Positions 14,271 through 54,670 of a stretch of 64,000 nt of DNA are shown here, piece after piece. This DNA comes from a virus. Both the position numbers and the translations under genes were made by a program. Where the stretch lies: the IMG/VR virus record IMGVR_UViG_3300042373_001362, positions 84,356 through 148,355 of that record. One strand, given 5' to 3'. The notes under the pieces were generated by a model, which had not been told where the DNA came from, ran no database searches, and worked only from the letters and a program-made list of their open reading frames with translations. Every line of letters starts with the position of its first letter. The first letter of the stretch is position 1.

Positions 14271-14343
14271 GGGCTAGTAGCTCAGTGGTTAGAGCGCCAT
14301 TCTTATAAAATGGTGGTCGCGGGTTCAATTCCCGTCTAGCCCA
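14271..14343 (+). tRNA. tRNA-Ile (UAU)
   Basis: GGGCTAG/CTAGCCC acceptor stem, D arm, CCATT-CTTATAA-AATGG anticodon arm, GGTTCAATTCC T arm; no encoded CCA. Confidence 0.9.
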
Positions 14344-14361
14344 CTAGACAAAATAAAATGT

Positions 14362-14913
14362 ATGAGAAAAGACGAATCGCAACTACGTTTATCAGAAATG
14401 CCACAGCCGGTGTATTTGCGCTGGGCCAGAGAACCTGAGCGCAATAGTTACGATACAAAAACTTTACTCGACTACGACGGCTATAGATATCTGCATACCT
14501 GGCAGGCAGGTTGTTGCGCCATGTGTGGCAATGATAAAGCAAGCATGGTTCTTGACCATTGCCACGAGAGTGGACTAGCACGAGGATTTCTTTGCAGCCC
14601 GTGCAACACAAAAGAGGGAACTAGTTTCAACGACGTTGAGTGGGAAATCTACAGAAAGTTTCCACCAACTGTTTTGCTTGACTTGAAGTTTTACTACAAC
14701 GACTTCGGCAGAGCTCCATACCCTGTGCAGGCCGAGATATCTAAAGAAAAAGTGGATACAAAGGTCAAGACCTGGGATAACGAATTTTGTTATCAGGTCG
14801 TAAAAGAATACTGCAACTACAAGTCGAGCCTTCATTGGATAAATTCATCCGATATGAGGGAATTAATTAGAAAATCGATAGCATACGTTAGAGAAGCAAC
14901 TAGAAACGGATAA
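14362..14913 (+). CDS. Recombination endonuclease VII-domain protein
   Basis: CAMC..LDHCHESG..RGFLCSPCN. Confidence 0.85.
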   Translation: MRKDESQLRLSEMPQPVYLRWAREPERNSYDTKTLLDYDGYRYLHTWQAGCCAMCGNDKASMVLDHCHESGLARGFLCSPCNTKEGTSFNDVEWEIYRKFPPTVLLDLKFYYNDFGRAPYPVQAEISKEKVDTKVKTWDNEFCYQVVKEYCNYKSSLHWINSSDMRELIRKSIAYVREATRNG

Positions 14914-14915
14914 AC

Positions 14916-15113
14916 ATGGAAAACACCGAAACAACAATCGATTTTATCGACAACTGTGTAAAGTGCGACAAGTCACTGATTTCAGATGACGGAAAACGTA
15001 TAGGTGGATTAATGAGAAGCGTCAAGCTTGGTAACGCAACAATTTACGGCACCAAATGCTGGGAATGCGTAATGGCTCCCGATTCAGAAATTTGGAAAGA
15101 AGAACAGGACTAA
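14916..15113 (+). CDS. Small Zn-ribbon protein
   Basis: CVKC..CWEC. Confidence 0.55.
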   Translation: MENTETTIDFIDNCVKCDKSLISDDGKRIGGLMRSVKLGNATIYGTKCWECVMAPDSEIWKEEQD

Positions 15114-15123
15114 CATCCAATTC

Positions 15124-15200
15124 GGGCCCTTAGCTCAGTTGGTTAGAGCGCCGGACTCATAATCCGTTGGTCGTGGGTTCAAGTCCCACAGGGCCCACCA
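15124..15200 (+). tRNA. tRNA with CAU anticodon, probably Ile2
   Basis: Cloverleaf, loop CTCATAA, encoded CCA; GGGCCCTTAGCTCAG start resembles Ile2 tRNAs rather than fMet. Confidence 0.85.
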
Positions 15201-22299: not shown

Positions 22300-22308
22300 A
22301 CTACTCTG

Positions 22309-22381
<73 letters not shown>

Positions 22382-22553
22382 TTATTTTGTTACGAGCATA
22401 CTCGCTCTCGGGATAAAGTTTCTCTATCACTGTTGGGACTTTACGACACAATCCACAACGCCCCATAGAATGATAAGCACTATGTCTGTGTATCGGCCAG
22501 TCTCGACAACAGCGCAAAATAATCAGTTGATTCCAAAACTCATCACTCATTAG

Positions 22554-22625
22554 CACCCCCGATAGGAATCGAACCTACGCACATAGTTTAGGAAACTACT
22601 GCTCTATCCACTGAGCTACGGGAGT
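22554..22625 (-). tRNA. tRNA-Arg (CCU)
   Basis: Minus-strand cloverleaf, anticodon loop TTCCTAA. Confidence 0.88.
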
Positions 22626-22631
22626 TTGACA

Positions 22632-23012
22632 CTACGCCTGCGCTGCTGCGTCAAGGAACCATTGGTTGTGTGGGCAAATGTTCAAAACTGCGTGTCGCAC
22701 CATAAATCCGATAAGAGCAACATCTCCACCTTGGGGAACCATTCGTGCCAAATCACTAAGAGACATTCCTTCGTCAATCGCGTCACAAGCAATTTGACCG
22801 AACTCCACAATCCACTTGCGACCGTGAATGTTTACTGCGTCAGGGAAGCCTTCCATCACTGCGTCAAAGTAACCCTCGACACCACCTCTAGACTCAGGTG
22901 CTGTCACGGGTGGGTTTGTTGATTCAGGCGTAGTAGCTTCAACTACAACAGTTCTTGTTCCACACCCGACAAGAGTTACGCTTGCGAGTATTACGAGTAT
23001 TGCTTTTTTCAT
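22632..23012 (-). CDS. Putative lipoprotein
   Basis: MKKAILVILASVTLVGC lipobox; GGAG SD. Confidence 0.65.
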   Translation of the reverse strand: MKKAILVILASVTLVGCGTRTVVVEATTPESTNPPVTAPESRGGVEGYFDAVMEGFPDAVNIHGRKWIVEFGQIACDAIDEGMSLSDLARMVPQGGDVALIGFMVRHAVLNICPHNQWFLDAAAQA

Positions 23013-23044
23013 TTTCTCTCCGTTTGTTAGATACACAAGTATCG

Positions 23045-23117
23045 TACCCCTAGCAGGGCTCGAACCTGCGACGCACGGATTAAAAGTCCGACGCTCTACC
23101 AACTGAGCTATAGGGGC
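23045..23117 (-). tRNA. tRNA-Lys (UUU)
   Basis: Minus-strand cloverleaf, anticodon loop CTTTTAA. Confidence 0.9.
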
Positions 23118-41591: not shown

Positions 41592-41678
41592 CCAGGCAGC
41601 ATAGACCGGATGGCAGCAAAAACACGGGGCTCAAAACAGATTTGTCGGTTAGGGGTGGGGGGTAGTAAGGTGGTTCTT

Positions 41679-41885
41679 GTGAGGGAGACCCACCGCCTCT
41701 CCTCCGATACAACCGAATCGCACCAGTCCCTCCGCAGGATAAGGCTCTGGACAGCAAGCCTCTGATGGGCGTACGACCATCAAGCATCCGCCACAGTCCA
41801 CCCGTCCTCCCTCTCGCGCGATAACTGCTCTAGGCTCGGGGGTGCTAGCCCCAGTATCGGAGGTGGGGCGGGGGGTCTTTTTCTT
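41679..41885 (+). ncRNA. Structured non-coding RNA, copy 1 (6S-like rod)
   Basis: Array promoter 41642, no credible ORF; 41681-41710 pairs with 41854-41883; ends in a U-tract; homolog at 43313. Confidence 0.7.
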
Positions 41886-41954
41886 TGTGCCAAAAGCGGG
41901 GCTTGGCACAAAGAAAGTTTGTCGGTCGTGGGTGGCCTGTTCTAAGATTGTCTT

Positions 41955-42257
41955 ATGAAAACAACAGCGAACAACGAAACAAGGGCAGCAATGAACGCTG
42001 CGTATCTAAACCCATTCGTCACGACATTGACTCTTGACGAAGTGCCGCACAAACGCAAATACACAAAAGAGCTGCGGGCTGGAGATTTCGTGGCCGTGTT
42101 TGTCAGCACCTCTCAGAAAGTTTGGGAAGGCTATTTTTCTTGGAAAGAAATCCGGACGATTGCTGCGACCCCTCAGGCCTATGTCCTGAAGTTCACAGAC
42201 GGAACAGACGAACGACACCCAAAGTTCTCAGCAGGTAAATGGGAAGTGATGAAATAA
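41955..42257 (+). CDS. Cassette hypothetical protein
   Basis: Leaderless ATG at +36 from 41919. Confidence 0.7.
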   Translation: MKTTANNETRAAMNAAYLNPFVTTLTLDEVPHKRKYTKELRAGDFVAVFVSTSQKVWEGYFSWKEIRTIAATPQAYVLKFTDGTDERHPKFSAGKWEVMK

Positions 42258-42375
42258 CCCGCCGGAATTTCCGGCAGCCGCACGCACGAGTGGCTAGCCC
42301 CGCTAGCCACTAATACGTGAGTGCTCCTCTTTCGTAAATTGTCGGTTAGGGGTGGGTGGGTGTAATGTTGGAGAC

Positions 42376-42672
42376 ATGAACACAACAGCAACAACACACA
42401 CACAGTCAGCCCAACTAATTGACGATGCAACCCGTGAGGGTCGCCTCTATCACTTCAACGGTGGGCAGGCATACATCAAAGCAAGTGAGGACGATGTTCT
42501 CCTAATCATTGACATGACACAGGAAACACCCGACTTCACTTACCACTATGGTGAGTTTGCCTCTAACTACTTCCGTAACAACCACCCACAGCCCACAGAC
42601 AGGGAACCACTTGTTCCGTTCTACGCAGAAGTGGACAAAAGAAAATTGTCGGTTCAGGGTGGGAAGAACTAA
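42376..42672 (+). CDS. Cassette hypothetical protein
   Basis: Leaderless ATG at +37 from 42339; its 3' end overlaps the next promoter. Confidence 0.65.
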   Translation: MNTTATTHTQSAQLIDDATREGRLYHFNGGQAYIKASEDDVLLIIDMTQETPDFTYHYGEFASNYFRNNHPQPTDREPLVPFYAEVDKRKLSVQGGKN

Positions 42673-43312
42673 GATAGAGACATGGAAACAGCACAAGCAT
42701 TCATCATCGTCACTTGGTTCTTGGTCAAGTGTGCAGGACTCGCAATCTTTGCAGTCGGCGCATACACCACTATCCAATGGATTAGGAAAAATGTCTCATT
42801 CTTCACTTACGAAGATGTAGACCCATCAGAAGACCCCGACTGGGTTCGGGAAAACTACGGATAACAATCCGTAGACAGCGACAGCGAGAAAGTTCTTGCT
42901 CCCAGTTTGTCGCTGTACTGGTTGAGCAGAAAGAGAAAGAGTCACTTTCGGGTGGCTCTTTCTCTATGTGGAGCCCCGGTTCTCCGGACAAAAAGAAAGA
43001 GCCCCAGCAATAAAGCTGAAGCTCCTCTTTCCTTGTGACTCACCATTAGAGCTCTCAAGGAAGAGCTTATGTCTGGTCGTGAGCCAATCCAGCAAGGGGG
43101 ACTTCCTTACCCGATAGTTGGTATCTGCCGATGTCCCTAACCCAATCGAGCTAAGTACGGTTTCGTTCCTCAACAGCAGTGTCCCTGACTGATAGGTAAA
43201 CATTACCAGCATTTCTCCAGCTTGTCAACTCAGATAGTCGTGGCCTCAATCTAGGCAACGGGGCTCATTTCCCGATTTGTCGGGTCAGGGGGGGTGGTGA
43301 TAAATTGGTCTT

Positions 43313-43521
43313 GTGAGCGAGGCTCTTCGCCTCTCCCACACACAACATAAGTGCATAGTCTCCCTTCTGGATAAGGCTCTTGTCACTGCGATATCCTCTC
43401 CACTCTCCGGAAGTGCGATGTTCCCTCCAGTCAGACAATCCGTCCTCCTCTGAATAGACCTCTCCTTATGGGGGTGACGACCTCGTGTGTGGGTGGGGCG
43501 AAGGGGCTCGCTCTTTCTTTT
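43313..43521 (+). ncRNA. Structured non-coding RNA, copy 2 (6S-like rod)
   Basis: Array promoter 43277; 43315-43343 pairs with 43485-43513; U-tract; covaries with copy 1. Confidence 0.7.
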
Positions 43522-43554
43522 ACATAGGGGCAAGCCCCGTCTTGCCCCTATGTA

Positions 43555-43570
43555 TGTTTCACGTGAAACA
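43555..43570. other. parS site (perfect)
   Basis: TGTTTCACGTGAAACA. Confidence 0.85.
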
Positions 43571-43612
43571 TTGGACTTGTCGGTCAGGGGTGGGTGCGAC
43601 TAAGGTGGGGGT

Positions 43613-43915
43613 ATGGAAACAGCAACAACATTGGAAACATCAGTCGGCAACCAACTCCCAAAGGGAAACGGCTCATTCTCGGTCACTACGATTGTCAATG
43701 GACTGATTATCACGCCAAGCAACTCATCAGCGATTAGTCAAATCAACTACCTCGCTGATGACAGCGTTCTTGTCGTGACATACAGCAACGGTGGTATGTA
43801 CCACTACAAAGAAGTCCCAGCAACGGTGGTATTCCACTTATTGGTTGCCGAGAGTTTTGGGAAGTTCATCAACGCACACATCAAGCCACACTACGAGTTT
43901 CGCAAAATCTGGTAA
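43613..43915 (+). CDS. KTSC-domain protein 1
   Basis: SSAISQINY..VLVVTYSNGGMYHYKEVP..LLVAESFGKFINAHIKPHY. Confidence 0.8.
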   Translation: METATTLETSVGNQLPKGNGSFSVTTIVNGLIITPSNSSAISQINYLADDSVLVVTYSNGGMYHYKEVPATVVFHLLVAESFGKFINAHIKPHYEFRKIW

Positions 43916-44444: not shown

Positions 44445-44741
44445 ATGGAAACAACAGCAACATTTGAAACATCACTCGGCAACCAACTTCCTTCGGGCAA
44501 CGGTACTTTCACAGTCCTTGACAGTGGAAACCTCATCATCAGACCAACCTCATCAGCAATCAGCAAAGTCAGTTACCTCATTGGCTCGCAAGTACTTGTT
44601 GTGAAATACAACGGCAGTGAGACCAAATACTTCTATCGGAATGTTCCCGTAGCAGTGGCGTTCCACCTGCTAATCGCTGACAGTTTCGGCAAGTTCATCA
44701 ACGCTCACATCAAGCCCAACTACGAGTTCTGGACAAGTTAG
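44445..44741 (+). CDS. KTSC-domain protein 2
   Basis: Paralog of 43613: SSAISKVSY..YFYRNVP..ADSFGKFINAHIKPNY. Confidence 0.8.
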   Translation: METTATFETSLGNQLPSGNGTFTVLDSGNLIIRPTSSAISKVSYLIGSQVLVVKYNGSETKYFYRNVPVAVAFHLLIADSFGKFINAHIKPNYEFWTS

Positions 44742-45588: not shown

Positions 45589-45897
45589 ATGACATCAACA
45601 GCGATTCAGTATCAAACAGCACAACACGACCTTCCAATGCCAAAGGGCAACGGAACATTTATTGTCTTTGCAGACGGAACCCTAATGGGTCACCCCGAAT
45701 CATCGGCAGTAGCAGAATGGAACTACCTTGTCCACACGGCAACGCTTGTAGTGGAATACAAGGGAAGCCCCAAGCAATACTTCTACGAAGAAGTACCTTC
45801 CTACAAGGTATTCCAAATGCTCGCCAGCGACAGCATCGGCTCATTCATCGCCAAGGCAATCAAGCCCCACCACCAAGTGTGGTCGCCCGAGCGCTAA
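45589..45897 (+). CDS. KTSC-domain protein 3
   Basis: SSAVAEWNY..YFYEEVP..ASDSIGSFIAKAIKP. Confidence 0.75.
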   Translation: MTSTAIQYQTAQHDLPMPKGNGTFIVFADGTLMGHPESSAVAEWNYLVHTATLVVEYKGSPKQYFYEEVPSYKVFQMLASDSIGSFIAKAIKPHHQVWSPER

Positions 45898-54604: not shown

Positions 54605-54670
54605 ATTTGTCGGTCAGGGGTGGGTAGCACTAAACTGACTGATGTCCCCAACTACTAGAAGGAACAGAAA

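Follow-up and report, generated by a model that had tools for sequence, protein, structure and literature searches.

To our knowledge, few regulatory RNAs encoded by phages have been described, with next to none from phages that infect Actinobacteria or from freshwater phages that are uncultured. The subject of this analysis is a candidate non-coding RNA (ncRNA) of about 205 nt, two homologous copies of which (copies A and B) lie among the early promoters of an uncultured virus; the window, meaning the whole stretch of 64,000 nt that was analyzed, is the right-hand 64 kb of the complete 148,355-bp IMG/VR virus record IMGVR_UViG_3300042373_001362, in which direct terminal repeats are present.

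Among the described RNAs that this one resembles are 6S and Ms1, as it is likewise some 200 nt long with its ends paired in a long closing stem and would plausibly be an abundant, stable decoy; it is, however, branched, has no universal central bubble and gives no covariance-model match. The 6S-like rod perceived in the sequence-only reading, a first look at the DNA made without database searches, has therefore been given up for a three-way junction with a branched arm, and a cmscan of Rfam over 41600-43600 returned no 6S, Ms1, 6C or Y RNA match even at E<=10 (at gathering scores, only five transfer RNAs (tRNAs) were reported over the window). The family is absent from Rfam and previously undescribed.

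The 6C RNAs are chromosomal, about 60-100 nt long, and consist of two hairpins with C-rich loops. In Actinobacteria, the C-rich loops of this small RNA (sRNA) pair with G-rich sites of mRNAs and need no chaperone to do so (PMC6486639). Exposed C-rich UCCCUCC boxes, found in subtypes B, C and E of the present family, and a host phylum that is probably common are points of likeness, but neither sequence nor structure matches: the RNA described here is longer (~205 nt), phage-encoded, clamp-closed and arranged around a three-way junction, its C-rich boxes are situated in internal loops, and its key CCUCC is predicted to be paired internally to an element resembling the Shine-Dalgarno (SD) sequence. 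A long stem joining the 5' and 3' ends, a pyrimidine-rich interior and a 3' U-tail are shared with Y RNA/YrlA (Ro/Rsr-binding RNAs, some of them in phages), although both an Rfam match and the tRNA-like domain are missing, and identity with Y RNA was rejected, a TROVE/Ro gene (PF05731) being absent from the 148-kb genome and the controls of that search positive.

Repeated short motifs on a structured scaffold are also a trait of the CsrB/RsmZ sponges and of phage decoys (pseudo-ToxI, RNA anti-CRISPRs), and the present RNA is akin to the latter in being phage-encoded, non-coding and probably a trans-acting competitor; its motifs, however, are neither GGA loops nor ToxI repeats. A mimic of a CRISPR (clustered regularly interspaced short palindromic repeats) repeat, or a host origin, was considered and rejected, the 18-mer composed of a hairpin and GGATAAGGCTC having only 20 scattered single matches, and no arrays, in 185,579 prokaryote species genomes; this is about the estimated chance level, no copy beyond such chance motif matches was found there, and the covariance model added nothing beyond the motif, although a diverged host repeat would escape a scan of this kind. 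An apical self-complementary hexamer that varies in sequence while keeping its self-complementarity is reminiscent of the dimerisation initiation site of human immunodeficiency virus 1, with the difference that dimerisation is here only putative and that the palindrome of some members amounts to the top of a stem plus a CUAG loop. Oligomeric natural RNAs are known in the ROOL, GOLLD and raiA families.

Two paralogous copies and their relatives

Judging from sequence comparison, copies A and B very probably are two paralogous genes of a previously undescribed family of structured phage ncRNAs (Table 1), and each displays what would be expected of a phage-encoded trans-acting ncRNA gene in general, i.e., promoter geometry, a U-rich tail, covariation and the lack of a conserved open reading frame (ORF). 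A covariance-model search found exactly two copies in the 148-kb genome, scoring 233 bits with model R1 and 170 bits with model R2 (copy A) and 230 and 191 bits, respectively (copy B), and the two fold with z-scores of -2.3 and -5.3, respectively. Comparative support for the family is strong, its architecture is clear, and it resides in the early (host-takeover) region, frequently as a pair of diverged copies. It qualifies as a well-defined Rfam candidate and is, at ~205 nt, short enough to be synthesised.

Table 1. Coordinates of the two RNA copies, their promoters and their structural parts within the window.
Feature	Copy	Position	Strand	Details
Early-array promoter	A	41642..41671	+	TTGTCGG-N4-GGGGTGG ... 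TAAGGT, 7 nt before GTG at 41679
Early-array promoter	B	43277..43305	+	TTGTCGGGTCAGGGGGGG ... TAAATT, 6 nt before GTG at 43313
ncRNA, A-type paralog	A	41679..41890	+	about 208-212 nt
ncRNA, B-type paralog	B	43313..43520	+	about 207 nt
P1, 5' strand	A	41681..41710	+	partner 41854-41883
P1, 3' strand	A	41854..41883	+	U-rich tail TCTTTTTCTTT next
P1, 5' strand	B	43315..43343	+	partner 43485-43513
P1, 3' strand	B	43485..43513	+	tail TTTCTTTT next
P2	B	43346..43351 with 43465-43470	+	CATAAG with CTTATG; covaries across subtypes
Motif X	A	41737-41748	+	GGA[TAA]GGCTCT (GGATAAGGCTCT), split SD-like core
Motif X	B	43369-43380	+	as in copy A
Inner helix (P3a)	A	41748-41752 with 41796-41800	+	TGGAC/GTCCA
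Inner helix (P3a)	B	43380-43384 with 43434-43438	+	TTGTC/GACAA
P3b apical hairpin	A	41763..41782	+	self-complementary hexamer CGTACG at apex
C-box 1, P3b, C-box 2	B	43388..43428	+	GCGATATCCTCTCC; P3b at 43401-43415, apex TCCGGA; GCGATGTTCCCTCC
Motif Y	A	41802..41814	+	CCGTCCTCCCTCT, anti-SD-like core CCTCC
Motif Y	B	43440..43453	+	CCGTCCTCCTCTGA
P5 hairpin	A	41839..41852	+	GGGGT GCTA GCCCC
P5 hairpin	B	43471..43484	+	GGGGT GACG ACCTC
Boundary hairpin after RNA	A	41883..41913	+	GCGGGGC loop
Boundary hairpin after RNA	B	43522..43553	+	AGCCCCG loop

That neither of the array promoters at 41642 and 43277 drives a credible ORF had already been suggested by the sequence-only reading, and this has stood: the promoter geometry is present, GTG takes the place of the usual array ATG, and what follows is a homologous unit of ~205 nt (41679-41886 in copy A, 43313-43519 in copy B) and not an ORF. 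The start codon is missing in six of the 13 homologs compared (AAG, GGG, GAC, GAG, GGA or GGC instead of GTG), and the ORFs read from this position extend for anything from 6 to 68 amino acids (aa), that of copy A being 28 aa long and not conserved; residues are shared only where such an ORF overlaps a conserved helix, and the shared motifs fall in different frames. A small peptide as the product was, thus, rejected, since neither start codon nor peptide nor frame is conserved, and it is the structure rather than a series of GTG-initiated peptides that has been kept. As for the strand, the R2 model, built from homologs, gives 170-191 bits on the + strand and 16-27 bits on the reverse one, and this 150-bit difference, along with the many G-U pairs of the closing helix, indicates that selection acts on the + strand RNA.

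Some 30 homologous copies, frequently two per contig, were found on IMG/VR and metagenome contigs, and covariation of the closing helix among homologs is strong. A two-sequence covariance model retrieved a single homolog among 50 related viral records, whereas motif scans of IMG/VR and of a metagenome collection, checked by covariance models, yielded ~14 distinct copies, grouped as subtypes A-E plus one divergent form that was retrieved by covariance model alone; with a less strict scan, a dozen further contigs were found to carry a distant F-type, which has kept both conserved motifs (X and Y), the closing helix (P1) and P2 as well as the palindromic apex and the GACG hairpin. The homolog set is biased toward the motif patterns used for its retrieval. 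Nucleotide searches of cultured-phage records and a strict 5' pattern scan of IMG/VR gave no match, and the first-pattern matches in the IMG/VR loci L083, L086 and L088 and in L089 were discarded as chance hits in unrelated sequence.

Wherever both are present, the A-type lies upstream of the B- or C-type (the window, L096/L097 and L100). The early-promoter element preceding the RNA is lineage-specific, while the RNA start is constant at 6-7 nt past the TANNNT box. Copy A is 95-97% identical to the A-type copies on four other contigs having different promoters, and A-type copies in general are 95-98% identical across phages that differ in promoters and neighbouring genes.

Fold and conserved core

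The closing helix P1 was assessed on a model-fitted alignment of 15 distinct sequences, using 500 shuffles (which ignore the relatedness between sequences) and slid-partner controls. Closing helices of ~30 bp had been proposed for both copies from the letters alone and were recovered at the same places (29-30 bp), as were the identical core with its U-U mismatch and the flanks, in which the two copies differ by compensatory changes. Both sides have changed in 21 of the 27 pairs of P1, 94.4% of the alignment cells are paired (45-57% with a slid partner), and not one of the 500 shuffles reaches any of the five measures used. Within this otherwise covarying helix, a CGCC/GGCG block is invariant and the U-G wobble after it is conserved; a conserved ACAAC junction separates P1 from P2. 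The 3' strand of P1 in copy B can, in addition, form a 7-bp hairpin of its own that resembles a terminator and precedes the U-tract (43495-43514), for which copy A has no equivalent; by fold prediction, this hairpin would stand in for P1 while the RNA is being transcribed.

Read sequence by sequence, P2 is canonical in 13/13 sequences with three to four pair types per position (CATAGG/CCTATG, CATGAG/CTCATG, CTGA/TCAG, CCTAG/CTAGG, CTCAG/CTGGG and GTTGG/CCAAC among its variants), and the 73% of paired cells obtained for it in the R2-fitted alignment is too low, because MAFFT registers were kept in subtypes B and D. P5 is a 4-5-bp hairpin with a GACG or GCUA (GCTA) tetraloop that covaries as well (GGAGC/GCTCC, GGTGC/GCACC, GAGAG/CTCTC), albeit with a base mismatch in two sequences, and as the 3' strand of P2 abuts it, the core can be described as a P1/P2/P5 three-way junction. 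The arm extending from P2 contains the inner helix P3a, which covaries too (TGGAC/GTCCA, TTGTC/GACAA, CATTG/CAATG, CACTA/TAGTG), and it is capped by P3b, the apex of which is a self-complementary hexamer in 13/13 members, in five different sequences (CGUACG, UCCGGA, CCUAGG, ACUAGU and UCUAGA), the F-type having CCCGGG or CCGCGG. This hexamer may, as far as can be told from the modelled fold, be a kissing-loop dimer site. C is enriched in the interior of the arm (30-39% C vs. 17-23% G, each being 23% in the genome). What the sequence-only reading had noted, namely shared motifs in different frames, an inner helix that covaries, a hairpin on the 3' side and a U-rich tail, was in each case found where it had been placed.

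The arm is further marked by two nearly invariant motifs, X, or (G)GAUAAGGCUCU, and Y, or CCGUCCUCCUCU, the latter including the element CCGTCCTCC that begins at 41802 in copy A and at 43440 in copy B. The invariance is partly driven by the search, because every motif retrieval route used motif X, and TAAGGCTC of this motif is present in all homologs found; the member retrieved by covariance model alone, without a motif pattern, has nevertheless kept UAAGGCUCU and contains CCGUCCGCCUCU. The two motifs are predicted to pair as GGA[UAA]GG on CCUCC, i.e., by five base pairs with a UAA bulge, and without its bulge X reads GGAGG, the core of the SD sequence, the core of Y being CCUCC, that of the anti-SD. 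Position X2:Y9 is canonical in 22/22 modules, with A-U replaced by U-A in one lineage and by C-G in another, G-C at X0:Y11 has turned into A-U twice, and the joint score was reached by only 0.08% of shuffles, which here, too, take no account of relatedness; these statistics were computed by script, because the alignment of X..Y modules puts inner and outer modules in different columns. The ensemble pairing probability of X with Y is 0.3-1.0 in most of 17 members (~0.5 in copy B) and below 0.15 in five.

In subtypes D and F, X and Y each occur twice, having been duplicated together, and are nested around the apical hairpin; one lineage has CCGCC in place of CCUCC. In subtypes B, C and E, and in no others, the inner module is replaced by two C-rich boxes (GCGAnAnUCCCUCC) that are unable to pair with each other; copy B and subtypes C and E have 2-3 extra UCCCUCC boxes, predicted to be unpaired with probabilities of 0.4-1.0. 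The CCUCC-rich segments highlighted by the sequence-only reading are, then, real and conserved, although the most conserved CCUCC is predicted to be engaged internally with GGA[UAA]GG rather than free.

Proposed action and its competitors

The explanation that we favour as a whole, at a probability of roughly one half, is that of a new ncRNA family serving as a trans-acting decoy or regulator of translation initiation. Each copy would be an early transcription unit of its own, with the array promoter 6-7 nt upstream of the RNA 5' end, and P1 together with the U-rich tail would make both a terminator and a nuclease-resistant clamp. The core of the arm would hold one or two GGA[UAA]GG(CUCU) elements paired with one or two (CCGU)CCUCC(UCU) elements, and the RNA would build up early in infection as a stable decoy or regulator acting in trans on host translation initiation: once opened, the SD-like/anti-SD-like module would engage the 16S 3' tail or GGAGG-type ribosome-binding sites, to which the free UCCCUCC boxes of subtypes B, C and E would contribute. 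The mechanistic part taken by itself, i.e., action at translation initiation, is put forward tentatively.

A more specific version, in which translation is reprogrammed by SD/anti-SD mimicry with the early messages of the phage being spared, must be called doubtful. GGA[UAA]GG would occupy the CCUCC of free 30S subunits and/or CCUCC(UCU) would mask host GGAGG sites; the early messages of the window phage would be spared as leaderless, while in the F-type phages, most early genes of which are SD-led and have a stereotyped GAAAGGA leader (...ACGAAAGGACA..ATG), this leader would pair with the very 3' end (UUUCU) of the 16S tail, a portion that CCUCCUCU of the RNA does not reproduce. Homodimerisation via the palindromic loop would turn the RNA bivalent. 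If ribosomes or their binding sites on mRNA are indeed engaged by the core, a virus would here redirect translation by a new, RNA-based route.

Several points weigh against a role in translation initiation. If X and Y were stably paired, neither element would be free to act in trans; the helix between them, in turn, has compensatory support from just 3-4 events, X and Y being nearly invariant, and the fold prediction alternatively places the outer X of the F-type in a hairpin loop. Nothing complementary to X or Y, and no antisense target, was found in the phage genome. The RNA is, moreover, absent from 12 complete related genomes (capsid 71-80% identical), and is thus accessory. Finally, bipartite conserved motifs and bulged helices are equally typical of protein-binding sites.

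This last point leads to the competitor that survives best, a protein-binding scaffold or sponge having nothing to do with SD/anti-SD chemistry, by which a host or phage protein would be sequestered or recruited; it is possible, if short of probable, and accommodates the same facts about equally well as mimicry at translation initiation does. Recognition sites could be sought in the bulged GGA[UAA]GG/CCUCC helices, the CGCC/GGCG block of P1 with its wobble and the GCGAnAnUCCCUCC boxes, and partners among Rho, S1, IF3, an RNase or a defence sensor, perhaps with a homodimer formed through the palindromic loop. Invariant base pairs and a conserved G-U in a helix that otherwise covaries, bipartite and repeated motifs with X and Y duplicated together, the apex hexamer that is self-complementary in all 13 members checked in spite of its five sequences, and the C-enriched interior of the arm all speak for such a scaffold, and the presence of the RNA in phages with leaderless and with SD-led early genes alike suits a function independent of translation mode. 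A candidate partner was, however, not found among TROVE/Ro, the KTSC-domain genes or the conserved neighbours: the recurrent neighbours of the RNA belong to no Pfam family, and the KTSC genes adjoining it in some lineages do not co-occur with it across genomes. If it binds a protein, the RNA would amount to a novel decoy and would introduce an RNA-protein recognition motif that is likewise new.

A global anti-SD sponge, in which free CCUCC masks the SD sites of the host so that only the leaderless early mRNAs of the phage are translated, comes close to the anti-SD sRNA with leaderless escape that had been suggested by the sequence-only reading, and in this form it is improbable. It would agree with the approximately 40 leaderless early genes of the window phage, with the extra UCCCUCC boxes of copy B and of subtypes C and E, with the precedent of a C-rich sRNA of the 6C type and with the proposal that loss of the anti-SD favours leaderless mRNAs (PMC5408214). 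The model is, however, weakened because the CCUCC is predicted to be paired internally with GGA[UAA]GG, subtypes D and F having no free C-boxes at all, because one lineage has CCGCC instead, and because the early arrays of the F-type phages are mostly SD-led; longer genes of the window phage itself also have SDs of the AGGA/GGAG type, and the stoichiometry relative to the whole host mRNA pool would presumably be unfavourable. A translation-related role thus still fits, and the anti-SD idea survives, only in modified form.

Very improbable is a 6S-/Ms1-like decoy of RNA polymerase that mimics an open promoter. The length of ~200 nt, the ends paired in a long closing stem and the two non-complementary strands of ~13 nt around the apical hairpin of subtypes B, C and E are what such a decoy might look like, and early strong expression would be in line with a takeover of transcription; yet Rfam models of 6S, Ms1 and their relatives find no match at E<=10, the RNA branches at a three-way junction where a rod would be expected, subtypes A, D and F lack the bubble-like C-boxes, the apical stem that would have to be the downstream duplex has just 4-7 bp, and the conserved motifs are not promoter-like.

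Very improbable as well, lastly, is that no functional RNA product exists and that the units are a DNA- or transcription-level element of the array (an insulator, terminator, recombination cassette boundary or origin) or a small-protein gene: their position between array cassettes beside boundary hairpins with an AGCCCCG loop, the terminator-like look of P1 with its U-tract and the GTG exactly at the usual place of a leaderless ATG could be taken that way, but the G-U pairs and the strand asymmetry suggest that it is the RNA of a single strand that has been under selection, an interior of ~120 nt that is 95-98% conserved despite unrelated promoters and neighbours exceeds the needs of a terminator, and start codon and frame are not conserved among the homologs.

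Host, early promoter array and neighbouring elements

Hundreds of relatives of the capsid protein are found on uncultured viral contigs, the nearest capsids of cultured phages (47-48% identity) being those of Gordonia and Brevibacterium phages. The host is probably actinobacterial, because of these nearest capsids, an Rpf-type transglycosylase domain encoded by the 148-kb phage, the TANNNT -10 boxes and the many leaderless starts.

The early array comprises ~50 near-identical promoter-like copies on the + strand (window 30534-56674) of the form TTGTCGG-N4-GGGTGGG-N6-TAAGGT, and the pattern TTGTCGG-N4-GGGNGG has 59 matches where 3.8 would be expected by chance. Because the array promoter escapes a generic sigma-70 scan, its promoter status is drawn from the regularity of the array alone. 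At most copies, an ATG follows the TANNNT -10 box by 6-7 nt, and the array genes are therefore leaderless; many of these start with the identical codons ATGGAAACAGC[A/G]AC (Met-Glu-Thr-Ala-Thr). About ten array units have a leader and an AGGA-type ribosome-binding site instead, often with CTACTAGAA before it (e.g., at 54607, 56658 and 51980).

Hairpins with a fixed AGCCCCG or CGGGGCT loop and variable stems, such as those bounding copies A and B, also stand 3' of the RNA in loci L084, L093, L097, L099 and L100; CGGGGCT occurs upstream of promoters too, and the motif is kept in lineages with wholly different promoters. Three paralogous early proteins of ~100 aa with a KTSC domain (PF13619) are encoded at 43613-43915, 44445-44741 and 45589-45897 of the window, a KTSC gene is found immediately 3' of the RNA in L084, L092 and L100, and KTSC domains are also contained in giant open frames of related phages.

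The 410-nt gap between a 60-aa gene (42682-42864) and the promoter of copy B is occupied by a promoter-like site on the minus strand (TTGACA-17 nt-TAATGT, within 42985-43228), and a 13-bp terminator with a U-tract (43027-42996) follows ~200 nt downstream; an 82-aa ORF in the same gap begins within the spacer of this promoter. The unit is a candidate third small RNA, antisense-oriented, of which no conservation was seen in the related loci compared.

In the F-type phages (L145, L147, L151, L159, L161, L169 and L170), the promoter array has the form AACTC[G/A]GGAAnGTA[T/A]AATGA, and most of its units have a stereotyped leader of ~20 nt (...CAACGACGAAAGGACAnnnATG), a minority being leaderless. 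A further promoter unit of these arrays lacks both a ribosome-binding site and a start (L145 ~738, L151 ~6642, L159 ~4221, L169 ~4713); it opens with a conserved stretch resembling a hairpin (GCAGTTGGATAACACTGC... / GCGGTTGGATAACACCGC...), after which comes ...CTGGGCGGCGTC, and may represent a second ncRNA family. In the early region (~35-68 kb) of a related complete phage that has no copy of the RNA (G012; loci L129-L136), AATAGATAAGTC is repeated 36 times, counting both strands, and appears to be another lineage-specific array element. The five tRNA genes of the window (Ile-TAT, Met-CAT, Arg-TCT, Arg-CCT and Lys-TTT) are located at 14271-15200 and 22308-23117.

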